64,000 nt of DNA, taken from the NCBI GenBank assembly GCA_964547975.1, contig CAZJRM010000001.1:5774-69773 (forward strand), read 5' to 3'. Below, piece by piece: positions 9,684-62,202 of the stretch. Below the pieces are notes generated by a model. That model searched no databases, was not told where the DNA came from, and saw only the letters and a list, made by a program, of their open reading frames with translations. The DNA is from an uncultured Vicinamibacterales bacterium (lineage in GTDB: Bacteria > Acidobacteriota > Vicinamibacteria > Vicinamibacterales > JAKQTR01). The position numbers were made by a program, and so were the translations under genes. The stretch's first letter is position 1. Each line of letters begins with the position of its first letter.

Positions 9684-9710
9684 CGGGGGCTGGCTGAAGC
9701 CAGCCCCCAC
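9684..9710 (-). repeat. REP-like hairpin copy R1 (10-bp stem GGGGGCTGGC / 4-nt loop / GCCAGCCCCC, flank CGTGG on the minus strand)
   Basis: A perfect inverted repeat read directly from the sequence. It is intergenic, and the same architecture occurs at five other sites. Confidence 0.8.
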
Positions 9711-9748
9711 GATGCAGGCCGGGGGCCGAGAGCCGGATTGGAGCACGC

Positions 9749-10534
9749 GTGGCTGACGGATGGAAGGGCTGGGACGACTACGCGGCGTTCTACGACTGGG
9801 AGAACGCGCAGACGATGGGCCGGCGGGACGTCCGGTTCTGGGAGACTCTCGCCCGGCGAACCGGCGGCCACATCCTCGAACTGGGGTGCGGGACCGGGCG
9901 GATCACGCTGCCGCTGGCCCGGACGGGCGCGCGCGTCGTGGGAATCGACCGATCCGAGTCGATGCTCGCCCGGGCACACGAGCGCGTCAGGCGTTCGCGG
10001 TTGCCCGGCCGGCCTGGCCTCGTGCGCGGTGATATCACCGCCTTGCCGTTTCCCTCGTCGAGTTTCGACCTCGTGGCCGCGCCGTACGGCATCCTGCAGT
10101 CGTTGCTCGACGACCGCGTGCTGACGGCGACGTTGGCCTCGGTGGCTCGTGTGCTGAAGCCGGGCGCCACGTTTGGAATCGACCTGGTTTCGGACCTGCC
10201 GGCGTGGCAGGAGTACGAAAACCGCACCAAACTGCAGGGCACACGCGGAACCGGCCGCAACCAGGTCCGGATCACGCTGGTCGAGTCCGTCCGTCAGCAG
10301 CGCCGGAAGGGCCTGACCACGTTCGACCAGGAGTTCATCGAGCGTCGGGGCCGAGAGACGCGGCGGCATCGGTTCACGCTGTCATTCCGGACCCTGTCGG
10401 TCGAAGACATGGCGTCGCGGTTGGAGCGGGCCGGATTCCGTGTGAAAGCGGTGCTGGGCGATTACCGTGGCGGCGCGTGGGACGACCGCGCCGACGTCTG
10501 GCTGATCCTCGCCGAACGCCGCTGCCCCGCGTGA
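9749..10534 (+). CDS. Class I SAM-dependent methyltransferase
   Basis: Motif I ILELGCGTGRIT, plus the post-I and motif II/III pattern. GTG start preceded by TGGAG. Confidence 0.8.
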   Translation: MADGWKGWDDYAAFYDWENAQTMGRRDVRFWETLARRTGGHILELGCGTGRITLPLARTGARVVGIDRSESMLARAHERVRRSRLPGRPGLVRGDITALPFPSSSFDLVAAPYGILQSLLDDRVLTATLASVARVLKPGATFGIDLVSDLPAWQEYENRTKLQGTRGTGRNQVRITLVESVRQQRRKGLTTFDQEFIERRGRETRRHRFTLSFRTLSVEDMASRLERAGFRVKAVLGDYRGGAWDDRADVWLILAERRCPA

Positions 10535-35451: not shown

Positions 35452-36132
35452 ATGCCACCACGCGCGCTGCCCCTGCCGAATCCCCGGGACGTCGAGTGGA
35501 CCATGCGCCGCCTGGCGCGTGCCATCACCGGCCTCGAGCTCCCCGTCGTCGAGAAGATCGCCGAAGCCCAGAAGGAAGACGCCTTCCAGGTGCTCATCGC
35601 GACATTGCTGTCGGCGCGTACGCAGGATGCGACCACGGCGGCGGCGTCCGGACGCCTGTTCGCGGCGGCTCCGGACGCGAAGACAATGGCGACGTTGCCG
35701 GTGAAGCGGATCGAGAAGCTGATCTATCCCGTGAGCTTCTATCGGACGAAAGCCGTCCACGTGAAGGAGACGTGCCGTCTCCTCCTCGACACCTTCGGTG
35801 GGCGGGTGCCGGGCACGATGGACGAGCTGCTGACGCTGCCGGGCGTCGGCCGGAAGACGGCAAACCTCGTGCTGATCCTGGGCTTCAAGAGCCTGCGCAA
35901 CATCTGCGTCGACACGCACGTGCACCGCATCTCGAACCGTATGGGCTGGGTGCGGACCCGCACGCCCGACGAGACCGAGCAGGCGCTCTACGAGCGGACG
36001 CCGGCCCGCTGGTGGCCGTATATCAACCTGTACCTCGTGACGTGGGGCCAGAACGTCTGCCGCCCGATCACGCCGAAGTGCGGCGAGTGCGTGCTGGTGG
36101 AGCGATGCCCGAGGCTGGGGACTGGCACCTAG
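35452..36132 (+). CDS. nth: Endonuclease III (Nth)
   Basis: I trimmed the track ORF to ATG 35452. HhH-GPD (LPGVGRKTANLVL, VDTHVHR) and a 4Fe-4S Cys cluster C-x6-C-x2-C-x5-C (CRPITPKCGECVLVERC). Confidence 0.85.
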   Translation: MPPRALPLPNPRDVEWTMRRLARAITGLELPVVEKIAEAQKEDAFQVLIATLLSARTQDATTAAASGRLFAAAPDAKTMATLPVKRIEKLIYPVSFYRTKAVHVKETCRLLLDTFGGRVPGTMDELLTLPGVGRKTANLVLILGFKSLRNICVDTHVHRISNRMGWVRTRTPDETEQALYERTPARWWPYINLYLVTWGQNVCRPITPKCGECVLVERCPRLGTGT

Positions 36133-36133
36133 C

Positions 36134-36279
36134 GCCTGGAGCCTGGGGCCTGGAGCCTGAACTGAGCTCGACCTGAAGCCGGAGTCGTGCGGGATCCTGG
36201 CTCTGCAGGCCGAGAGCCGTGCGCCTCCACGAGCCGCCAACCGCCAACCGCGAGCCGCGAGCCGTGAGCCATGAGCCTG
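36134..36279 (+). repeat. Heptanucleotide tract A: GCCTGGR x4 (36134-36161) and GAGCCGC-type x7 (36231-36279)
   Basis: Read directly: GCCTGGA GCCTGGG GCCTGGA GCCTGAA; then GAGCCGC CAACCGC CAACCGC GAGCCGC GAGCCGT GAGCCAT GAGCCTG. Confidence 0.8.
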
Positions 36280-36282
36280 ATG

Positions 36283-36288
36283 TATCAT
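36283..36288 (+). promoter_or_regulatory. -10-like box TATCAT (context ATGTATCAT) downstream of tract A
   Basis: It shares the TGTAT..T context with the boxes at 38030-38037 (minus strand) and 60530-60537. No -35 is recognisable. Confidence 0.35.
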
Positions 36289-36997: not shown

Positions 36998-38023
36998 CTA
37001 CTCCTCTGAGTCAGCGTCCCCTGCCGGCTCTTCTGTCTCTGTCCCGTCCATGCCCTCGAATAGCCCTTCTGGCGGCCTTCGCGTTTCCGCGGCCGCGAAC
37101 GGCCGCATGAACGGGTAACGCTTCAGCATCTCCTCCGAGTACCGTCCCGCGACCGGCTCTCCAATCTGGTGTTTCATGGTCGCCGCGTTGGCGACCGCCT
37201 TCGCCGCGAAGTGGTTGTTCATGAAGACGTAGATCTTCTGGACCAGGCGACGGACGTTCGAGACGATGTCGCTGAACTCCGAGACTTCCGACGGCGAGTA
37301 CAGGTAGTTGTACCGTTCGTCTTGATGGTCGTGGGCCCACCACTTCTCGGCGTTGCGGCCGTGCAGCCGCATGTAGTAGAGACCGCGCAGGTTGGGAAGG
37401 TGGTTCTGACGGATGGAGAAGCGGAACTTGGGCTCGTCGATCTGGGCCCACGCGGCACCCAGGCCGTTGAGCAGCCCGAGGGTCTCGACGACCCGATCGC
37501 TCCAGCTCCGGTGCCGGAGTTCCACCGCCACCGGGTAGGCCCTGAATGCCTCGAGCAGCCAGGCGAGGTACGCGCGTGTATCGGGGGCATCGCGGAAACT
37601 CGGTGGGAATTGCGCCAGGAGGGCGCCGATCTTGCCCGCGCGGGCCAGCGGATCGATGGCGGTTCTGAACGCGTCCACATCCGCCATCGAGACCACCGGC
37701 AAGGCCGACGTGACCGCGTCGGCCGGGGGCGCGCCGCCGTGGGCGTGTTGGTACATGGCCGGGTGCGTGAACTTCTGGAAGAGCTTCATCGCGAAGTCGA
37801 AGTCGGCTGGCGTTCGTTTCGCCCACGCGCGCGTCGTGTCGGGGGTCGGAAGGCGGTAGAAGCTCGAATTCACCTCGACCGTGTTGAAATGTTCGGCGTA
37901 ATACGCCAGTTCGTCGAAACGCCTGCCCCCGGAAGACCGGGAAGCCGGATAGAAGATCCCGTTCCACGTCCCCTGCCCGGACGGATAACTCCAACCGGAG
38001 GTGCCGATGCGCACGTCGCCCAT
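36998..38023 (-). CDS. DUF72 (UPF0759) family protein
   Basis: I trimmed the track ORF 36998..38161 to ATG 38023. The extension only translates the repeat tract (PFPVPYRLFPFP..). It has the family N-terminus VRIGTSGWSYPS and an acidic C-terminal tail. Confidence 0.85.
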   Translation of the reverse strand: MGDVRIGTSGWSYPSGQGTWNGIFYPASRSSGGRRFDELAYYAEHFNTVEVNSSFYRLPTPDTTRAWAKRTPADFDFAMKLFQKFTHPAMYQHAHGGAPPADAVTSALPVVSMADVDAFRTAIDPLARAGKIGALLAQFPPSFRDAPDTRAYLAWLLEAFRAYPVAVELRHRSWSDRVVETLGLLNGLGAAWAQIDEPKFRFSIRQNHLPNLRGLYYMRLHGRNAEKWWAHDHQDERYNYLYSPSEVSEFSDIVSNVRRLVQKIYVFMNNHFAAKAVANAATMKHQIGEPVAGRYSEEMLKRYPFMRPFAAAETRRPPEGLFEGMDGTETEEPAGDADSEE

Positions 38024-38035: not shown

Positions 38036-38244
38036 CACGGAGGGGAAAGGGAATAGGCGATAGGGAACTGGGAAAGGAAAGGGGAAGGGGAATAGGCGAT
38101 AGGGAACAGGGAAAGGGAACCGGGAACAGGGAAGAGGGATCAGGCGAGAGGCTAGAGGCAACGGCCGCGTGCCGGAAGCCGGAAGGCGAGCGCCTGGGGT
38201 CGGTGAGCAAGGTCGAAAGCCTGAAGCCGCGAGCCACGAGCCGG
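38036..38244 (+). repeat. Heptanucleotide tract B, filling the divergent DUF72/queE intergenic region
   Basis: A 20-bp perfect direct repeat GGGAATAGGCGATAGGGAAC occurs at 38049-38068 and 38088-38107. The stretch 38119-38244 reads as 18 heptamers in one register (ACCGGGA ACAGGGA AGAGGGA TCAGGCG AGAGGCT AGAGGCA ... AAGCCTG AAGCCGC GAGCCAC GAGCCGG). Confidence 0.8.
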
Positions 38245-38250
38245 TAGAAT
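38245..38250 (+). promoter_or_regulatory. -10 box TAGAAT 12 nt upstream of the queE ATG (near-leaderless)
   Basis: GGTAGAATAGTACCGTCGCCATG. The same TAGAATAG octamer appears in the tRNA promoter. Confidence 0.45.
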
Positions 38251-38262
38251 AGTACCGTCGCC

Positions 38263-38904
38263 ATGTTGACGATCAGCGAGATCTTCCATTCGATTCAGGG
38301 CGAGTCGTCGTACGCCGGCTTGCCGTGTGTCTTCGTGCGCCTCGCGGCCTGTGATCTGCGATGTGCCTGGTGCGACACGCCGTACGCGTTCACCGGCGGC
38401 ACGAAGATGTCGATCGACGACGTGATCGCGTCGGTCGAGCGGACCGGTTGCCGGATCGTCGAGGTAACGGGCGGCGAGCCGCTCCTGCAGGACGACGTCT
38501 ACCCGCTGATGGCGGCCCTTCGGGACCGGGGCCTGACGGTGCTGCTGGAAACGGGCGGCCACCTGCCCATCGACCGCGTACCCGCCGGCGTCGTGCGAAT
38601 CGTCGACGTGAAATGCCCGGCGAGCGGCGAGTCGGCGCGCAACCACTGGCCCAATCTCGAGGTGTTGCGCCCGTCCGACGAGGTGAAGTTCGTGATCCAG
38701 GACCGCGCCGACTACGATTTCGCGAAGCAGGTCGTGAAGCGGCACCACCTCGCGGGACGCTGCGCGGGCGTGCTGTTCTCGCCGGTTCACGGCGTCCTGG
38801 CGCCGGCACAGCTGTCGGAGTGGATCCTGGCCGACCGCCTGGACGTGCGGCTGCAGCTGCAGGTGCACAAGTACATCTGGGCGCCGGACACGCGCGGAGT
38901 CTGA
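38263..38904 (+). CDS. queE: 7-carboxy-7-deazaguanine synthase QueE (radical SAM)
   Basis: [10 protein letters not shown] and Cys cluster [12 protein letters not shown]. Confidence 0.9.
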
Positions 38905-39580: not shown

Positions 39581-39635
39581 CGTGGCGTCCGGCTTCAGCC
39601 GGACGCGGCAGGGCTGGCTGAAGCCAGCCCCCACG
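39581..39635. repeat. REP-like doublet R5/R6 in inverted orientation
   Basis: CGTGGC-GTCCGGC/TTCA/GCCGGAC (39581-39604) and GGGCTGGC/TGAA/GCCAGCCC-CCACG (39611-39635). Confidence 0.8.
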
Positions 39636-39669
39636 CGAGCCGAAAGTCGCGAGCCGAAAGCCGAAAGCC
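39635..39669 (+). repeat. Heptanucleotide tract C (5 units)
   Basis: GCGAGCC GAAAGTC GCGAGCC GAAAGCC GAAAGCC, ending 6 nt before the ATG at 39676. Confidence 0.75.
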
Positions 39670-39675
39670 GTCCCT

Positions 39676-51154: not shown

Positions 51155-51385
51155 ATGGCCACCTGTCCGGAATGCGACTTCGAAATCGACATCGACGAGT
51201 ACGATGCCGACAAGGGCGACACGCTCGAATGTGACAACTGTGGCGTGCGCCTGGAAGTCGTCAGCCTGAATCCCATCGAACTCGACGTCGTGGCCGACGA
51301 AGACGAAGAGGACGACGACGAGGACGAGGACGAGGACGAAGACGAAGAAGACGACGACGACGATGACGAGGACTGGGACCAGTGA
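51155..51385 (+). CDS. LysW/amino-group-carrier-protein-like zinc ribbon with a 26-residue poly-Asp/Glu tail
   Basis: I trimmed the track ORF 51071..51385 to ATG 51155 (SD GAGGAGG). MATCPECDFEI..GDTLECDNCGVRLEVVSLNPIELDVV, then a D/E run, then the terminal EDWDQ. Confidence 0.7.
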   Translation: MATCPECDFEIDIDEYDADKGDTLECDNCGVRLEVVSLNPIELDVVADEDEEDDDEDEDEDEDEEDDDDDDEDWDQ

Positions 51386-52242
51386 TCGACGCTGACGGCC
51401 CGGCGGCGTTCGGCGTCGACCGGGACCGCCTTGCCGGGAAGGAGACGCGGCTCCGGGCGTCGTTGTCGGCCCTCGACTCCGTGCTCGTGGCCTTCAGCGG
51501 CGGAGTCGACAGCGCGTACCTCGCCTGGGTGGCCCACGACGTGCTCGGCGACCGGGCGCTGGCCGTGACGGCCGACAGCGCCAGTTACCCCGCCAGGCAC
51601 CGCGCCGTGGCGGTGCGCCTGGCGGCCGACTTCGGATTCCGCCACGAGTTCATCGACACCGCCGAGATGGACAACCCGGCCTACCTGGCGAACGAACCCG
51701 ACCGCTGTTACCACTGCAAACACGAACTGTTCGGCCGTCTCGCGTCGCTGGCCCGCGCGCGCGGGGTCGCCGCCGTGCTCGACGGCGCCAACGCCGACGA
51801 CCGCGGCGACTACCGGCCCGGGCGGCAGGCCGCCCGCGAGTTCGGCGTCCGCAGCCTGCTCGACGAAGCGGACCTGTCGAAGGCCGAGATCCGCGAGTTG
51901 TCCCGGCTGGCCGGACTGCCGACCTGGGACGAACCGGCGTCTGCCTGCCTGTCGTCGCGCATCCCGTACCATTCGTCGGTCAGCCCCGAGAAGCTCCGGA
52001 TGATCGAGCAGGCGGAAGACGTGCTCATCGGCCTCGGCTACCGGGGGTGCCGGGTGCGTCATCACGACGACCTGGCGCGGATCGAGTTGCAGCCCGCTGA
52101 CTTCGCTCGTGCGATTCAGGAGGCGGATCGCCTGACCATCGTGGAATCGCTCAAGGCGATCGGCTACCGGTACGTCTCGCTCGACCTGCAGGGCTACCGC
52201 ACCGGCAGCCTCAACGAGGGCATCGCCCTCAGGCCCGTCTAG
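51382..52242 (+). CDS. larE: LarE-type (TIGR00268-like) PP-loop ATP pyrophosphatase / sulfur transferase
   Basis: PP-loop AFSGGVDSAY, DGANADDRGDYRPG, three Cys (CYHCK + ACLSSRIPY), VRHHDDLARIE. GTGA overlap with the upstream ORF. Confidence 0.85.
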   Translation: MIDADGPAAFGVDRDRLAGKETRLRASLSALDSVLVAFSGGVDSAYLAWVAHDVLGDRALAVTADSASYPARHRAVAVRLAADFGFRHEFIDTAEMDNPAYLANEPDRCYHCKHELFGRLASLARARGVAAVLDGANADDRGDYRPGRQAAREFGVRSLLDEADLSKAEIRELSRLAGLPTWDEPASACLSSRIPYHSSVSPEKLRMIEQAEDVLIGLGYRGCRVRHHDDLARIELQPADFARAIQEADRLTIVESLKAIGYRYVSLDLQGYRTGSLNEGIALRPV

Positions 52243-55322: not shown

Positions 55323-55352
55323 GCGCGCATTGTACTTCGTGGTGAGTAGTGG

Positions 55353-55381
55353 TTGACACGGCCGCGGTCAGCCGATAGAGT
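55353..55381 (+). promoter_or_regulatory. Sigma70 promoter TTGACA-17-TAGAGT for pal
   Basis: Hexamers at 55353-55358 and 55376-55381. Confidence 0.55.
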
Positions 55382-55455
55382 CGCGGCATTACTCCCGCGG
55401 CGAGCACGCGGCGCCGCGTGTCCTGTTTGCTGATTCCTCTGGAGGTCCTAAGACG

Positions 55456-56031
55456 ATGCACCGCTGGACTCGATTGGCCGTTATTGCGGTCGCCTGCCTG
55501 GTGGTAGGGCTGTCTGTTTCGTGCGCGAAGAAGGCCCCTGCCGCGGCGCCTGCTCCACCGCCGCCGGCGCCCACCACTCCGCCACCGCCGCCACCACCAC
55601 CGCCGCCACCACCACCGCCTCCGGCTCCGGCGCCGAAGCCGCTGACCGAGGACGAGGTGTTTGCCAACAAGTCGCTCGACCAGGTGAATGCCGAGAAGCC
55701 GCTGCAGGACGTGTCGTACGACTACGACAAGGCCGAGTTGAGCGAGGCGGCACGCGCGGCTCTGCAGAAGAACGCCGAGTGGCTGCGCCGCTGGCCGAGC
55801 ACCCGGATCACGATCGAGGGTCACTGCGACAATCGCGGGACCAACGAGTACAACATCGCGCTGGGTGACCGGCGCGCGGCCGCTGCCCGCGATTACCTGG
55901 TGACGCTCGGGATCCCGACGACGCGGATTCTGTCGGTCTCCAAGGGCGAAGAGTCGCCGTTCTGCACCGAGGACACCGAGGCCTGCTTCGCGCAGAACCG
56001 CCGCGGCCACTTCGTCGTGACGGCAAAGTAG
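55456..56031 (+). CDS. pal: Peptidoglycan-associated lipoprotein Pal (OmpA-like C-terminal domain) with a poly-Pro linker
   Basis: Lipobox LSVSC, Pro-rich linker, OmpA_C motifs (GHCDNRGTNEYNIALGDRRA). SD GGAGG. Confidence 0.85.
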   Translation: MHRWTRLAVIAVACLVVGLSVSCAKKAPAAAPAPPPPAPTTPPPPPPPPPPPPPPPAPAPKPLTEDEVFANKSLDQVNAEKPLQDVSYDYDKAELSEAARAALQKNAEWLRRWPSTRITIEGHCDNRGTNEYNIALGDRRAAAARDYLVTLGIPTTRILSVSKGEESPFCTEDTEACFAQNRRGHFVVTAK

Positions 56032-56043
56032 GGTACGAAGGAA

Positions 56044-56072
56044 GGGCCGTCGAACATGGTGTTCGACGGCCC
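56044..56072. terminator. Perfect 13-bp hairpin between the convergent pal and pyrF genes
   Basis: GGGCCGTCGAACA-TGG-TGTTCGACGGCCC. Confidence 0.6.
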
Positions 56073-56138
56073 GTCGTGTGTCGGTCGGCTCTCGGCGTTC
56101 GGCCCTCGGCCTCGTCCTTCACGCCTCCCGCCTCTTCC

Positions 56139-56864
56139 CTATCCCCTGATCTCCGCGTTCAAGGCTTCCGCTGCGGCGCGCGGATCGGCGGCGGCCACGA
56201 TGGGACGTCCCACGACAATGTAACTCGCGCCCGCTCGCACGGCATCCCCGGCGCTCAGGGTTCGCGCCTGGTCGTCCTTCGGCCTGGCGCCTTCCGGCGA
56301 GGCCGGCCTGATGCCGGGCGTGACGAGGATGAAGTCGTGTCCGCAGGCCCGGCGCACCTGGCCGATTTCCTGCGGCGACGCGACGACGCCATCGAGGCCC
56401 GCGTCTTGCGCCAGGCGGGCGAGGGCGTCGACTTGATCGACCACCGGGCGTGTCACGCCGATCGAACCGAGGGTGGCCTGGTCGAAACTCGTGAGCACCG
56501 TGATGGCGATCACCAGCGGCGCGGTGTGGCCGGCCCTGGCCGCGGCGTCGTGCGCCGATTCGCGCGCGGCGCGCATCATCGCGGCGCCGCCCGCGGCGTG
56601 GACGTCGAAGAGCCACACGCCCAGGCGGGCCGCCTCGGCGGCCGCGCCGGCGACGGTATTCGGGATGTCGTGGTACTTCAGGTCGAGGAACACGCGGAGC
56701 CCCGTGTCGACGAGCTGGGACACGATCCGCGGCCCCGCCGCCGTGAAGAGCTGGCTGCCGACCTTCACGGCGCCGACAGCCCCCCGGAGGGTATCGGCCA
56801 GGGCGAGCGCGCGATCGGCGCTGTCGACATCGAGCGCGACAATGATGCGGTTGTCGTCGGTCAT
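56139..56864 (-). CDS. pyrF: Orotidine 5'-phosphate decarboxylase
   Basis: IVALDV, DLKYHDIPNTV, VTPGIR. Confidence 0.9.
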   Translation of the reverse strand: MTDDNRIIVALDVDSADRALALADTLRGAVGAVKVGSQLFTAAGPRIVSQLVDTGLRVFLDLKYHDIPNTVAGAAAEAARLGVWLFDVHAAGGAAMMRAARESAHDAAARAGHTAPLVIAITVLTSFDQATLGSIGVTRPVVDQVDALARLAQDAGLDGVVASPQEIGQVRRACGHDFILVTPGIRPASPEGARPKDDQARTLSAGDAVRAGASYIVVGRPIVAAADPRAAAEALNAEIRG

Positions 56865-57811: not shown

Positions 57812-58630
57812 TTACTCCCAGATGATCGCGTCGCCGCTGAAGACCGGACCGTTGACGCACGACCGGACGAAGTGCCCCTCGGGCGAGCCGTCCCGCACCC
57901 GCACCACGCAGCTGTAGCACCCGCCGAGGCCGCACCCCATGATCCGCTCGGTGGACACCTGCGACGGGCGTCCGTGCCCGGCTGCCAGCGCGGCGACCGC
58001 CTTCAGCATGGGTTCGGGGCCGCACGCGAACAGCGTGACGGGCGCGTCGGCCGGACGGGCGTCGAGATCCCGGGCGAGCGGACGCGTGACGCGGCCGTGC
58101 ACCCCGCGGCTGCCGTCCTCGGTGGCGAGTTCGAGGCGGACACCGCGGCTCGCGAACCAGTCCAGGTAGAACAGGTCGCGGTCGGTGCGTCCGCCGTAAT
58201 ACAACACCGCCGGCACGCCGGCGGCTTGCGCGGCTTCGGCAAGCGCGGCGAACGGCGCGAGGCCGACGCCGCCGGCCACCATCCACGCCTCGGCGGGTGG
58301 GACCGGCAGCTCGAATGGCGTACCGAGCGGGCCGAGGCAAGCGAAGCGGTCGCCCGCGCGCGCATCGTAGAGCCGCGAACTTCCCGGACCGACCCGCTTG
58401 ATCAGCAGCGAGATCGCGACCGCGTCGCCGGCGGGCGACCGGAGGATCTCGAAGACCGAGAACGGGCGCCGAAGCAGCGGGTCCGTGCCGGTGGTCGTAC
58501 GCACCATCACGAACTGGCCCGGCCGCGCGGACGCGGCGATCGGCGGGACCGAGAGCACGAGCACGTTGTAGTCGGGTGACAACCGGGTGTTGCTCGCCAC
58601 CTCGGCGTCGATGTCGACCGGGACGACCAT
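57812..58630 (-). CDS. pyrK: Dihydroorotate dehydrogenase electron-transfer subunit PyrK
   Basis: FAD/NAD-binding pattern (RPFS, GGVGLAP) and a C-terminal 2Fe-2S motif MGCGLGGCYSCVV. Confidence 0.85.
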   Translation of the reverse strand: MVVPVDIDAEVASNTRLSPDYNVLVLSVPPIAASARPGQFVMVRTTTGTDPLLRRPFSVFEILRSPAGDAVAISLLIKRVGPGSSRLYDARAGDRFACLGPLGTPFELPVPPAEAWMVAGGVGLAPFAALAEAAQAAGVPAVLYYGGRTDRDLFYLDWFASRGVRLELATEDGSRGVHGRVTRPLARDLDARPADAPVTLFACGPEPMLKAVAALAAGHGRPSQVSTERIMGCGLGGCYSCVVRVRDGSPEGHFVRSCVNGPVFSGDAIIWE

Positions 58631-58637
58631 GGCGCTC

Positions 58638-58646
58638 AGTATAACA
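58638..58646 (-). promoter_or_regulatory. Extended -10 TGTTATACT 7 nt upstream of the pyrK ATG; predicts a leaderless pyrK-pyrD-pyrF mRNA
   Basis: The minus strand reads GAGTTGTTATACTGAGCGCCATG. Confidence 0.5.
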
Positions 58647-58687
58647 ACTCACGCCCCATGTCCCATGCCCCTGCCTCCGTTGTGCGG

Positions 58688-58695
58688 TAGAGTAT
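58688..58695 (+). promoter_or_regulatory. -10-like TAGAGTAT 7-9 nt upstream of the ATG at 58703 (leaderless or near-leaderless)
   Basis: GGTAGAGTATCGTCGAGATG. Confidence 0.4.
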
Positions 58696-58702
58696 CGTCG
58701 AG

Positions 58703-60436
58703 ATGCGCTACGCGAGGATGCTCACAAACGCGATGCTGGGCGGCTTCGCCTTGGCCGCCTACCTGACGATGCTCGTCCTGCATCTCAATCCGCGGTATCC
58801 GCTCGGGGCGATGCCCTACCTGGCCGGGACGCTGGTGGCCTCGTACGGGCTCAACATCACCGCGGCCTTCTACGGCCTGATCGTCCTTCGGCAGCTGCTG
58901 TCGACCGAAGTCCTGTCGCCCGGGTGGATCAGCTACCGGTTTCTCGTCTGGCTCTCGGCGGTCGCGACCACGCTGGGCACCGCGCTCATGTGGGCGAACC
59001 TCCGCGGCTTTCGCAACGTCCTGAGTGAGCCGTCGGTCCGGCGCATGGCCGGCGCGGCCGCGGCCCTGACGCTGTGCGCGGCCATCTGCATCGTACTGGT
59101 CGTCATCCACCGCGTGTCCGGTCGGCGCAGCACCAAGGGGCGCGCGGCCGTCCTCGGGGTCACGATGATCGCGTCGATGGCCGTGCCGCTGACGTTACGA
59201 GGGCCCGGCATCGGGGCGGGCCGGCCGGCCCGCGTGCCCCCGCCGATGGCCGCCATCGGGCCCGCGTCATCCGACGCCCGAGTCGTCGTCGTGGCCCTGG
59301 AAGGCGCGTCGCTCGACATCATCGTCCCGGCGGCCGCCCAGGGCCGGCTGCCGCACCTCGCCCGCATCCTGCAGTCCGGCGCGTGGCTGCACATGGCCAC
59401 GATCAAGCCGACCCAGCCGAGCACCGTCTGGACCGCGGCCGCGACGGGCAAGCTGCCCGTCCGCAACGGCGTCCGCTCGGCGGCGACGTACTTCCCCATC
59501 GGCAGCCGCGACGGCCTCGAGATGCTGCCGGACTACTGTTTTGCCCACGCCCTCGTGCGGTTCGGATTCGTGACCGAGCGGGCACACGAGAGCGGTGACC
59601 TGGCGGCCCTGCCGCTGTGGAGCATCCTGTCGAACCAGGGCGTGAGCGTCGGCGTCGTGAACTGGTCGGTCACGCAGCCGGCCAGGCCCGTACTGGGGTA
59701 CCTGGTCTCGGATCGGTTCAAGGCCGGCTTCGAGGCCTCGCTCGAGCTGATCGGCTCGAACGCCATCTGGCCGCGCGAGGCCGTGACGACGGCCGTGGCG
59801 GCGGCCCAGCGGCGTCCGGCCGCCGACGGGCGGCCGGCGGCGCAGCCGCTCAAAGCCCCGGCCGCCGCGCGGTGCGAAGCGGATCGCATCTTCGATCGGA
59901 TGACCGGTGACCTCGAAACGCAGATGCCCGCCCGGTTCCGTGCCGTGCGCTACGAGTGTCTGAACGCGGTCGGGCAGTTCTACCTGCGCTTCACCGTGCC
60001 GGGGGCGTTCGGTGACGTGACGGAAGAAGAACTACGCCGCTTCGGAGGCGTTCTCACCTCGCAGTACATCAACGCGGACACGATCGTCGGGCGCGAGTTG
60101 GACGCCCTCCGTCCCGGTGACCTGCTCATGGTCGTGTCGGGCTACGGCGTCGAGCCTCTCGACCCTGGCAAACGGCTGCTGGAACGCCTCATGGGGAATC
60201 CCGACCTGACGGGAACCCACGAACGCGCGCCCGACGGATTCCTGATGGCGTTCGGCACGGAAGTGAAGCCCGGCCACTACCCGCGGTCGTCGATCGTCGA
60301 CCTCGCGCCAACCCTGCTGTACTACCTCGGCCTGCCGGTCGGCCGCGACATGGACGGCTACGCCCGGACGGACCTCTTCCATCGCACGTTCACCGACGCC
60401 CGTCCGATGACGTTCATTCCCACGTACGAAAGATAG
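58703..60436 (+). CDS. Membrane-anchored alkaline-phosphatase-superfamily protein (type I phosphodiesterase/NPP-like)
   Basis: About 5 N-terminal TM helices, then VVVALEGASLD..LPHL and PTQPSTVWTAAATGKLPVRNGV, which resembles the NPP nucleophile region. Confidence 0.55.
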   Translation: MRYARMLTNAMLGGFALAAYLTMLVLHLNPRYPLGAMPYLAGTLVASYGLNITAAFYGLIVLRQLLSTEVLSPGWISYRFLVWLSAVATTLGTALMWANLRGFRNVLSEPSVRRMAGAAAALTLCAAICIVLVVIHRVSGRRSTKGRAAVLGVTMIASMAVPLTLRGPGIGAGRPARVPPPMAAIGPASSDARVVVVALEGASLDIIVPAAAQGRLPHLARILQSGAWLHMATIKPTQPSTVWTAAATGKLPVRNGVRSAATYFPIGSRDGLEMLPDYCFAHALVRFGFVTERAHESGDLAALPLWSILSNQGVSVGVVNWSVTQPARPVLGYLVSDRFKAGFEASLELIGSNAIWPREAVTTAVAAAQRRPAADGRPAAQPLKAPAAARCEADRIFDRMTGDLETQMPARFRAVRYECLNAVGQFYLRFTVPGAFGDVTEEELRRFGGVLTSQYINADTIVGRELDALRPGDLLMVVSGYGVEPLDPGKRLLERLMGNPDLTGTHERAPDGFLMAFGTEVKPGHYPRSSIVDLAPTLLYYLGLPVGRDMDGYARTDLFHRTFTDARPMTFIPTYER

Positions 60437-60530
60437 GGAATAGGGAACAGGCGATAGGGAAGAGGGAAAGGGAAGAGGCGAGGGGCGAGAGGCGAGAGGC
60501 GCAAGCCGAGAGCCGAGAGCCGAAAGCCGT
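60433..60530 (+). repeat. Heptanucleotide tract D (14 units in one register)
   Basis: ATAGGGA ATAGGGA ACAGGCG ATAGGGA AGAGGGA AAGGGAA GAGGCGA GGGGCGA GAGGCGA GAGGCGC AAGCCGA GAGCCGA GAGCCGA AAGCCGT. It begins at the stop codon of the upstream gene. Confidence 0.85.
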
Positions 60531-60531
60531 G

Positions 60532-60537
60532 TATACT
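60532..60537 (+). promoter_or_regulatory. -10 box TATACT (context GTGTATACT) for the pyrR operon
   Basis: It directly follows the last heptamer. The PyrR-type hairpin begins about 8 nt downstream. Confidence 0.45.
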
Positions 60538-60541
60538 GTAA

Positions 60542-62185
<1,644 letters not shown>

Positions 62186-62202
<17 letters not shown>

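Follow-up and report, generated by a model that had tools for sequence, protein, structure and literature searches.

The 64-kb stretch of a Vicinamibacterales genome (Acidobacteriota) analyzed here, referred to below as the window, contains a tract of tandem 7-nt units that fills the space between the stop codon of one gene and the −10 box of the next, pyrR. The tract is best explained, with a probability of roughly 0.6, as a hypervariable heptanucleotide tandem-repeat array of the short tandemly repeated repetitive (STRR) or Xanthomonas GGGAATC kind, occupying unconstrained DNA between the stop codon and the −10 box. As judged from its sequence, it probably belongs to a known class of hypervariable heptameric intergenic repeats, in a lineage from which the class is newly reported. 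The DNA beneath the array appears free to vary, and the array would then not be a sequence-specific element of the promoter, nor is it probably any special part of it. Any effect on expression would be generic, acting through spacing, insulation or the structure of the G-rich coding strand. An initial annotation of the window had instead suggested an uncharacterized promoter-upstream element.

A composite heptamer array between a stop codon and pyrR

On re-reading, the tract parses exactly as first described, into 14 in-register heptamers at 60433-60530 followed by GTATACT at 60531-60537. Its left boundary is the stop codon TAG (60434-60436), which lies within unit 1 and is confirmed as the end of the open reading frame 58703-60436, and its last unit ends 1 nt before the TATACT box at 60532-60537. 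Genes were called in this analysis by codon statistics, and the features of the locus are as follows.

58703-60436, plus strand: upstream gene, 577 aa, type I phosphodiesterase/nucleotide pyrophosphatase family (Pfam, codon statistics)
60433-60530, plus strand: composite heptamer array of 14 units (direct reading, Tandem Repeats Finder, lag-7 identity)
60433-60474, plus strand: GGGA-type block of this array, 6 units
60475-60502, plus strand: GGCGA-type block of this array, 4 units
60503-60530, plus strand: GCCGA-type block of this array, 4 units
60532-60537, plus strand: TATACT, putative −10 box of the pyrR promoter (hexamer conserved in relatives)
60542-60672, plus strand: putative PyrR-binding leader, an attenuator (sub-threshold RF00515 match, pairing, conserved box)
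60701-61252, plus strand: pyrR, phosphoribosyltransferase domain (Pfam)
61249-62202, plus strand: pyrB, following pyrR

The 7-nt period of the tract is far above chance, as identity at lag 7 is 0.76, compared with 0.36 ± 0.05 (maximum 0.505) in 1000 dinucleotide shuffles of the tract, and the remaining lags from 3 to 12 all give 0.40 or less. Across the window, the top lag-7 score over 42 nt is 0.833, against a maximum of 0.667 in 100 shuffles of the whole window. Tandem Repeats Finder (TRF) independently lists the window's heptamer arrays, and a period scan of the window flagged only regions named in the initial annotation. The family of degenerate heptamer arrays is real.

Two further statements about the tracts also stand. 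They are non-coding, as the arrays fall outside the genes called by codon statistics, and they do not resemble clustered regularly interspaced short palindromic repeats (CRISPR). A CRISPR array needs repeats of 24-48 nt with unique spacers of like length, whereas the units here are 7 nt long, contiguous and spacer-free. Dispersed palindromes of the repetitive extragenic palindromic (REP), BIME or REPIN type, which consist of imperfect palindromes of 20-40 nt scattered through intergenic DNA and linked to a RAYT transposase, were rejected as well, since the units here repeat directly in tandem and none is palindromic. At gathering thresholds, Rfam returned a single tRNA in the window and no RNA family over the arrays; low-score matches over the tract (Pyrobac-1, UCA1 and sR53) are noise.

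The tract had been described as not hairpin-forming, which holds in that no long inverted repeat was found in it, but not for its last two blocks. Because a single G→C step separates the GGCGA and GCCGA blocks, and GCC is the reverse complement of GGC, the two are predicted to pair GGC:GCC every 7 nt, with purine internal loops (−24 kcal/mol, z = −2.7). Runs of three G (G3) occur at 60437-60473, with loops of 4, 11, 4 and 3 nt, and are absent from the GGCGA and GCCGA blocks. The only strict canonical G-quadruplex (G4) motif, at 38102-38124, lies inside another array of the window (38036-38244). In addition, the window's pyrR leader has no complementary C-rich arm of the kind found in relatives L003, L004 and L016, and the inverted-pair arrangement occurs in the window only at the convergent gap 56032-56147.

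The pyrR promoter and its relatives

Related loci were collected by PyrR-based scans, which gave 80 genome loci and 80 metagenome loci and, with the window, a sample of 161 sequences and 1.77 Mb. Nearly all of the 160 loci carry the label Vicinamibacterales, Vicinamibacteria or Acidobacteriota; L001 is the closest relative, with a PyrR 87% identical to that of the window. Since sampling was around pyrR, the sequences do not represent whole genomes, and an orthologous gap can enter the counts many times; many loci are metagenome assemblies, in which repeats may be mis-assembled. One locus, L061 (JBLMXQ010000140.1), carries Betaproteobacteria in its record title, yet its PyrR is 77% identical to that of the window and it shares the end of the upstream gene, the PyrR box and heptamer arrays with Vicinamibacterales loci; this contig is probably mis-binned.

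The PyrR box, CTCTTTAA...AAGAG, occurs once each in 146 of the 161 sequences, and these 146, the window among them, were aligned on it. At 7-9 nt upstream of the box they share a conserved TAtaaT hexamer, preceded by T at −3 in 104 sequences, by G at −2 in 128 and by a full TGn in 102. Positions −40 to −6, by comparison, hold at most 0.13 bits each. The consensus of the pyrR promoter in this alignment is TGnTAnnnT, an extended −10 pattern without −35 information. Extended −10 promoters can function without a −35 element in Escherichia coli as well as in Bacillus subtilis. From this conservation, TATACT is very probably the true −10 box of pyrR, and the alignment suggests a −35-less promoter type in Acidobacteriota that has a conserved −10 box, often extended by TGn. 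In L006, a masked run of N lies about 115 nt upstream of pyrR (locus positions ~9890-9990), at the very place of the promoter and arrays of other relatives.

The initial annotation had noted −10-like boxes without a −35 hexamer at three loci of the window, and had proposed that the arrays take the place of the −35 region. All three boxes are present (TATCAT at 36283-36288, TAGAAT at 38245-38250 and TATACT at 60532-60537), and a scan for sigma-70-type −35/−10 pairs found none at any array locus of the window. The pyrR tract does cover the DNA in which a −35 element would lie. However, it does not replace one, because the orthologous pyrR promoters have no conserved −35 element to be replaced.

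The spacer between the stop codon and the −10 box varies from 0 to 396 nt across the 76 loci that share the window's upstream gene, and 21 of these 76 carry an array. Arrays are found in none of the 20 syntenic loci with a spacer below 30 nt and in 20 of the 44 with a spacer of at least 60 nt; L001, with its 22-nt spacer, likewise has no array. As a control, 3 of 1212 coding segments score as arrays. These comparisons indicate that the pyrR array is dispensable over evolutionary time. Nor are the arrays specific to promoters, as a similar composite array follows the pyrF stop codon, in a convergent gap that has no promoter.

Downstream of the −10 box, folding predicts a binding hairpin at ~60544-60582, antiterminator pairing of 60556-60563 with 60639-60646, and a terminator-like hairpin followed by a T-rich run in the 3′ part of the leader. 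RF00515 matches the leader over its full length with 26.5 bits, short of the 54 bits set for gathering; Acidobacteriota may be under-represented in the Rfam model.

Heptamer arrays across the clade

The pyrR tract is one of many fast-evolving arrays in the intergenic DNA of these soil Acidobacteria. The period-7 excess anticipated for the intergenic DNA of relatives was found in this pyrR-centered sample. Autocorrelation over 1.47 Mb identified 69 period-7 tracts, 59 of which are intergenic although intergenic DNA makes up only 12% of the total. No tracts with periods of 4, 5 or 11 were detected in the same 1.47 Mb, and those with periods of 3, 6, 9 and 12 are mostly coding. A TRF census of intergenic arrays in the full 1.77 Mb (score ≥50) gave 68 arrays of period 7, 39 of period 14, 20 of period 21, 16 of period 8, four of period 9 and none of period 6 or 10. 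Periods 7, 14 and 21 together account for about half of the strong intergenic tandem arrays.

The units themselves are diverse, and the commonest unit family occurs in only 5 of 164 tracts. The GCCGA block was considered as a promoter module used throughout the clade and rejected, as AGCCG at 7-nt spacing ranks 35th among the 1024 pentamers, with 7 loci. A separate observation concerns L034:3528-3642, where about 13 near-perfect copies of CCCTAAT lie between co-directional genes and overlap both called gene ends; the complement, ATTAGGG, resembles the plant-type telomere unit TTTAGGG.

Turnover and sharing of units

The window's own species was absent from the PyrR scans (top PyrR identity 87% among genomes and 82% among metagenomes), and no record of the exact QueE product of the window was found. 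Polymorphism of the tracts was therefore judged from other pairs of close genomes. Between genomes that are 95-98% identical overall, substitutions per kb are 4-10 times more frequent, and indels 15-30 times more frequent, in tracts than elsewhere in the alignment. Side-by-side comparison reveals that units at orthologous sites are replaced wholesale between genomes ~95% identical, the unit upstream of pyrR being GGGACTC in L003, GGGGATT in L081 and GGCGCTA in L082. Whether indel lengths are multiples of 7 was uninformative in pairwise alignments, because repeats cannot be aligned unambiguously and units are swapped for others instead of gaining or losing copies.

In each of these three loci, a second array with the reverse-complement unit lies in the pyrR leader (L003:9707-9980, L081:2747-2980 and L082:2673-2980). 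The two arms have switched together between genomes ~95% identical, giving the pairs GGGACTC/CCCCAGT, GGGGATT/AATCCCC and GGCGCTA/TAGCGCC. L004, L005 and L016 likewise have a G-rich array behind the stop codon that is reverse-complementary to a C-rich one in the pyrR leader, and the complementary arms in relatives flank the conserved −10 box, the PyrR hairpin and the terminator. More generally, where fewer than 500 nt separate two arrays, their units agree with at most one mismatch in 57% of pairs, and 14 of the 20 matching pairs are inverted. The proportion of matches falls to 14% for arrays of the same locus at least 500 nt apart and to 4% for arrays from different loci.

A further site, L040:3133-3288 and L064:7806-7953 (95% identical), holds inverted pairs built of wholly different units, GGACTCT/GAAGTCT in L040 and GGTGCTC/GGCACCA in L064, both around a conserved central GACACGCGTG palindrome.

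Stepwise series of blocks are common in the relatives, with GGGGCTG→GGGACTG→GGGACTC in L016 and GGAAGCA→GGCAGTA→GACAGTA in L001 as examples. The gradient of blocks in the window can thus be read as an ordinary record of mutation followed by local amplification. Within the window, the gradient occurs three times and an exact 13-mer is shared, which points to copying or conversion between arrays rather than to three independent histories.

Position and strand polarity

The relatives have arrays in 5′ leaders and convergent gaps as well as after stop codons. The purine-rich strand had been taken to be the sense strand of the downstream gene, a rule that fails in the relatives, where the sense strand is G-rich in 37 arrays and C-rich in 45. 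The strand bias that had been expected is thus absent overall but present by position. In co-directional gaps, arrays nearer the stop codon are G-rich on the coding strand (31:16), while those nearer the start codon are C-rich (29:6; Fisher p = 1.4e-5), and arrays that abut the stop are G-rich on the coding strand in a ratio of 23:7. Without the pyrR gap and near-duplicate loci, the bias persists for stop-adjacent arrays (23:8, p = 0.011), and the C-rich trend of start-adjacent arrays (21:11) is not significant.

Starts of arrays also cluster at stop codons, with 30 of the 82 arrays in co-directional gaps beginning within 12 nt of one. The arrays of the window obey the stop-codon polarity at three stops (60434, 56141 and 36130). 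A function as stop barriers in three frames was rejected, as the signal is too weak: a stop triplet is present on the coding strand in 11 of 39 units, compared with 16% expected.

Relation to known heptamer repeats

The initial annotation had stated that nothing known matched the tract, which no longer holds, as intergenic heptamers of similar build have been described in Xanthomonas, Nostoc, Calothrix and Beggiatoaceae. The literature search found no report of heptamer repeats in Acidobacteria or Vicinamibacteria. In the 1.77 Mb around pyrR, the arrays have the characters of STRR-type repeats, namely tandem 7-nt units above chance, an excess of period 7, confinement to non-coding DNA and proximity to stop codons with a G-rich coding strand, to which the relatives add inverted pairs and variation at the same site.

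The closest parallel is with the GGGAATC repeats of Xanthomonas and the GGGGAYT repeats of Nostoc PCC 7120, which are about 90% intergenic and lie on average 28 nt from the upstream ORF (open reading frame) and 160 nt from the downstream ORF (Rehm et al., 2015; PMC4692102). After an ORF the G-rich strand is the coding one, and before an ORF it is the non-coding one; the repeats form 70-75 inverted pairs per genome, and they share intergenic sites between related species while differing in length and sequence (PMC4692102). They flank housekeeping genes; those of Xanthomonas fold into G4 in vitro, most of them are transcribed, and no regulatory effect was found for them (Rehm et al., 2015; PMC4692102). 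The Vicinamibacterales arrays resemble them in being intergenic and near the upstream ORF, in having a G-rich coding strand after ORFs, in forming inverted pairs and in having housekeeping neighbors, and even the units GGGGATT, GGGATTC and GGGACTG occur in Vicinamibacterales relatives. In contrast to Xanthomonas, which has essentially one unit family per genus, the clade has many families that are swapped between genomes ~95% identical. The window's arrays also differ from those of both Xanthomonas and Nostoc in being composite, with later GGCGA and GCCGA blocks that lack G3 runs and are not G4-capable.

The STRR sequences of Calothrix PCC 7601 are three tandem heptanucleotides dispersed in non-coding DNA, as later accounts relay (Mazel et al., 1990, via PMC4692102 and PMC4679880). 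As far as these accounts go, the arrays studied here are similar in that several differing tandem heptamers are dispersed in the non-coding DNA of one genome; they differ in phylum, and neither a gradient, nor composite arrays, nor adjacency to promoters is described there. The unit of STRR1 in Calothrix, which we take to be CCCCAGT, is the same as the unit in the pyrR leader of L003.

Heptanucleotides are, according to the summary of a survey of long simple sequence repeats (SSRs), the most abundant repeats of 5-11 nt in many prokaryotes, where they are lineage-specific and non-coding, and slippage by a polymerase with a 7-nt footprint was proposed as their cause (Mrázek, Guo and Shah, 2007). 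The heptamer excess and non-coding location found here agree with those long SSRs as summarized, with the difference that Vicinamibacterales genomes did not exist in 2007. Direct TAACTGA repeats occur in marine Beggiatoaceae and in some cyanobacteria and Bacteroidetes (MacGregor, 2015; PMC4679880). These are likewise intergenic and often sit directly before start codons; other heptamers are interspersed with them, and they vary even among closely related genomes, but a single A/T-rich unit dominates, mostly in 2-6 copies, and a translational role has been proposed (PMC4679880).

The functional case that is understood best is the phase-variable (ATCTTTC)n repeat of Haemophilus influenzae hmw1A, which is transcribed and pairs with a G-rich partner to form a long hairpin that RNase III cuts and that also drives changes in copy number (PMC12721329). 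Like the arrays here, the hmw1A/2A repeat is a 7-nt tandem repeat before a gene, and its G-rich partner recalls the paired G-rich and C-rich arms of the relatives. It differs in lying in a transcribed 5′ untranslated region (UTR) of a surface adhesin gene, in consisting of one perfect unit and in having a demonstrated effect of copy number, whereas the window's array lies upstream of a housekeeping −10 box, is degenerate and has no full complementary arm.

Other arrays in the window

The window holds at least six heptamer arrays, and a clear or moderate lag-7 signal is present in 6 of its 25 intergenic gaps of at least 40 nt. Four loci had been recognized initially, and further arrays are found at 56147→56085 on the minus strand, 36111-36159 and 58653-58679. 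The arrays and associated elements outside the pyrR locus are the following.

36111-36159, plus strand: array of GCCTGGR units (GAGCCTG register) (reading, TRF, period scan)
36221-36279, plus strand: GCCG-type array of CGAGCCG and CCAACCG units (reading, TRF, period scan)
38036-38244, plus strand: longest composite array, in the order GGGA→GGCNA→GCCG (reading, TRF, alignment)
38245-38250, plus strand: TAGAAT, a −10-like box 12 nt before the queE ATG (sequence reading alone, no comparative support)
39634-39670, plus strand: GCCG-type array of GAGCCGA and AAGCCGA units (reading, TRF)
56044-56072, no strand assigned: perfect 13-bp hairpin, terminator-like, between convergent genes (folding, z = −4.4)
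56085-56147, minus strand: nine-unit array missed in the initial annotation (13-mer search, minus-strand reading, alignment)
58653-58679, plus strand: small C-rich array, GCCCCAT GTCCCAT GCCCCTG CCTCCG (TRF, lag-7, reading)

The block order described for the pyrR tract does recur at 38036-38244, where a collinear alignment with 60433-60530 was obtained. This array lies between a divergent DUF72 gene (minus strand, start at 38023) and queE (ATG at 38263). Since queE has no Shine-Dalgarno sequence, its mRNA is predicted to be near-leaderless, probably. The GCCG-type blocks reported elsewhere were recovered as well, with extents of 36221-36279 and 39634-39670. The first of these ends just ahead of TATCAT (36283-36288) with a cyclophilin gene downstream, and the second, with 5 nt between it and the ATG (39676) of an AlaX-like gene, is preceded by a 24-nt hairpin repeat at 39612-39635. 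The stop codon TAG (36130-36132) of a HhH-GPD (endonuclease III-like) gene marks the start of the array at 36111-36159, and the array at 58653-58679 lies in a divergent gap just upstream of the start of the 577-aa gene.

The same order of blocks, GGGA→GGCG→GCCGA, is seen once more in the array at 56147→56085, whose units are AGGGGAT, AGGGAAG, AGGCGGG, AGGCGTG, AAGGACG, AGGCCGA, GGGCCGA, ACGCCGA and GAGCCGA. It begins within the stop codon of pyrF (TAG, 56141-56139), and there is no promoter downstream of it because the flanking genes are convergent. On the plus strand of this gap, the stop codon of the opposite gene (TAG, 56029-56031) is followed by TAGGGTACGAAGGAAGGG, a short run rich in G. 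The 13-mer AGGCGATAGGGAA, common to the two long arrays, has three exact copies in the window, compared with 0.04 expected, and a one-mismatch copy on the minus strand at 56135-56147. According to Pfam, arrays flank pyrR/pyrB, queE/queC, pyrF and the DUF72, AlaX-like, cyclophilin and endonuclease III-like genes, and all array-flanking genes in the window are housekeeping genes.

The 24-nt hairpin-forming sequence GGCTGGCTGAAGCCAGCCCCCACG has two exact copies in the window (expected 0), at 9688-9711 and 39612-39635, both of which are intergenic and have GCCG-type heptamers after them. In appearance it is a small dispersed element of REP-like type, separate from the arrays.

Origin and possible function

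If the tracts are hypervariable arrays in unconstrained DNA, slippage or unequal exchange in a 7-nt register would create them and turn them over, and point mutation followed by re-amplification of the mutant unit would lay down blocks one base apart, seen as a gradient. Arrays would be partly homogenized or copied between sites of one genome, and would expand into unconstrained non-coding DNA. With expansion limited to such DNA, the ends of arrays would be expected to coincide with functional boundaries.

Several observations weigh against this account. Slippage leaves unexplained the joint change of inverted-pair arms between genomes ~95% identical, as well as the presence of GGG or CCC in 38% of units compared with 22% of random intergenic heptamers, and slippage alone does not explain the G-rich coding strand at stop codons, a polarity shared by three unrelated phyla. 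These three features suggest selection or a directed process. A passive model leaves polarity, concerted arms and the sharing of units within genomes unexplained, which gives some weight to a structural role at boundaries and less to an active copying process. In addition, every related locus was sampled around pyrR, and the window's exact tract has no same-species counterpart with which copy number could be compared. The window's own box reads GTG-TATACT, with TG one base off, as in 5 of the 146 aligned sequences (window included). Since the TG is not correctly spaced, the −35 independence of this box would follow from its relatives.

Such a role could consist of marking gene boundaries by structure, with a G4, an R-loop or an RNA hairpin that insulates, pauses, processes or stabilizes transcripts, and with sequence free to vary provided that skew and complementarity are kept. 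This alternative is tentative and rather unlikely. The polarity fits it (G-rich near stops 31:16, C-rich near starts 29:6, the stop bias persisting at 23:8 with p = 0.011), as do the matching units in 57% of pairs less than 500 nt apart, with 14 of 20 inverted, and the co-varying arms of L003, L081 and L082 and of L040 and L064. Most orthologous gaps, however, are array-free, including all those with short spacers. The enrichment of GGG/CCC units (38% compared with 22%) and the canonical G4 motif at 38102-38124 point in the same direction as the polarity, but 62% of the clade's units contain neither GGG nor CCC, and G3 runs are missing from two of the three blocks of the window's tract. In that tract, the second and third blocks pair periodically (z = −2.7), while the window's pyrR leader lacks a complementary arm. 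For the repeats of Xanthomonas, G4 formation in vitro and, mostly, transcription have been reported, but no regulatory effect was found (Rehm et al., 2015; PMC4692102), and the heptamer of hmw1A does work through an RNase III-cut hairpin in the 5′ UTR (PMC12721329). Here, the arrays are known from DNA sequence, a further point against this reading. A more far-reaching form of the idea, in which the arrays mark gene boundaries throughout the lineage, is doubtful. It would have a G-rich coding-strand arm beginning at the stop codon and a complementary C-rich arm ahead of the next start, both rewritten in concert across a genome by an active templated or conversion process, and separating neighboring transcription units through a long RNase III-cut hairpin, a G4 or an R-loop. 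If true, it would also account for the heptamer repeats of Xanthomonas and cyanobacteria.

The remaining explanations assign the arrays to regulation or to a dedicated enzyme. A slippage-generated expression tuner had been proposed initially, that is, a contingency locus in which unit number sets the output of pyrR, queE and other promoters. Its slippage component fits the very high indel rates, and the array abutting a −10 box and the hmw1A (ATCTTTC)n precedent are in its favor, but tuning is improbable. In phase-variable promoters the repeat lies in the 5′ UTR or between the −35 and −10 elements, where copy number alters the leader or the promoter spacing; the array here lies wholly upstream of the −10 box, with no −35 element whose spacing could shift, and the flanking genes are housekeeping rather than surface, virulence or restriction-modification genes. 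Furthermore, arrays also occur at 3′ ends and in convergent gaps, and units are replaced, not just changed in copy number. Copying to gene boundaries by a mobile or enzyme-written element, whether of the kind formed by REP sequences and their RAYT enzymes or by template switching or reverse-transcriptase-type synthesis, is very improbable. It would accommodate the three collinear composite copies in 64 kb with their exact shared 13-mer, the genome-specific unit families with both arms rewritten in concert, and the 24-nt hairpin found exactly at two sites, each followed by GCCG units. Yet neither terminal repeats nor target duplications nor a gene for an associated enzyme were seen (RAYT was not specifically searched for), the same gaps in relatives hold arrays with other units, as fits turnover in place, and gene conversion between existing arrays is a simpler account of the sharing. 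Least credible is an array of sites for an activator, of SARP-like or another type, that would recruit RNA polymerase as a substitute for a −35 element. SARP sites are conserved heptamers spaced every 11 bp on the same helix face, in 2-3 copies at a fixed distance from the −10 box. The heptameric direct repeats bound by SARP regulators lie near the −10 box, as outlined in PMC5930380, and the pyrR array does span −12 to about −105 relative to the −10 box, with direct repeats adjoining a −10 box at three loci. A 7-bp period, rather than one of 11, nevertheless places successive units on different helix faces. The units are not conserved at orthologous promoters, many relatives have no array, the upstream region is without information in 146 promoters, and the same array occurs where there is no promoter. 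The 164 tracts contain many units, the commonest family numbering 5, and readings of the tract as an UP element or as SARP sites were ruled out on anatomy.

Heptanucleotide repeats have been recognized as the dominant long simple repeat of some bacteria since the reports of 1990 and 2007, with neither function nor mechanism established. The Vicinamibacterales add a fourth, unrelated lineage with a similar anatomy of arrays at stop codons, G-rich coding strands and inverted pairs. Given the far greater diversity of units and the hundreds of close genomes in this lineage, comparison can address the upkeep of complementarity between arms, the spread of units within a genome and selection on polarity. 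In practice, the arrays lengthen intergenic regions, may pass for regulatory sites or open reading frames, and probably cause difficulties when soil metagenomes are assembled.

Further observations in the window

The divergent gap 58631-58702 contains two −10 boxes, each 7-9 nt from a start codon that has no Shine-Dalgarno sequence.

58646→58638, minus strand: TGTTATACT, −10 box before the ATG at 58630 (sequence reading)
58688-58693, plus strand: TAGAGT, −10 box before the ATG at 58703 (sequence reading)

Their placement suggests leaderless mRNAs transcribed from extended −10 promoters, and queE looks similar. Besides the −35-less pyrR type, at least two other promoters of the window thus appear leaderless, in a phylum that has been little studied.

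On the plus strand, ARAGORN places a tRNA-Ser(GGA) at 37741-37833, within the minus-strand DUF72 gene (36998-38023), where Rfam has none at the gathering score; the call is probably a false positive. Two other repeat regions of the window are of a different class from the heptamer arrays. Repeats of period 3/12/15, rich in CCA and CCG, occupy 55540-55619, which is part of an intergenic gap (55323-55656) by the codon-statistics calls and is spanned by ORF 55456-56031 of the mechanical ORF list. Repeats of period 6/12 (GACGAA/GACGACGAGGAC) at 51296-51373 lie at the junction of the called genes 51155-51385 and 51382-52242 and probably encode acidic repeats.

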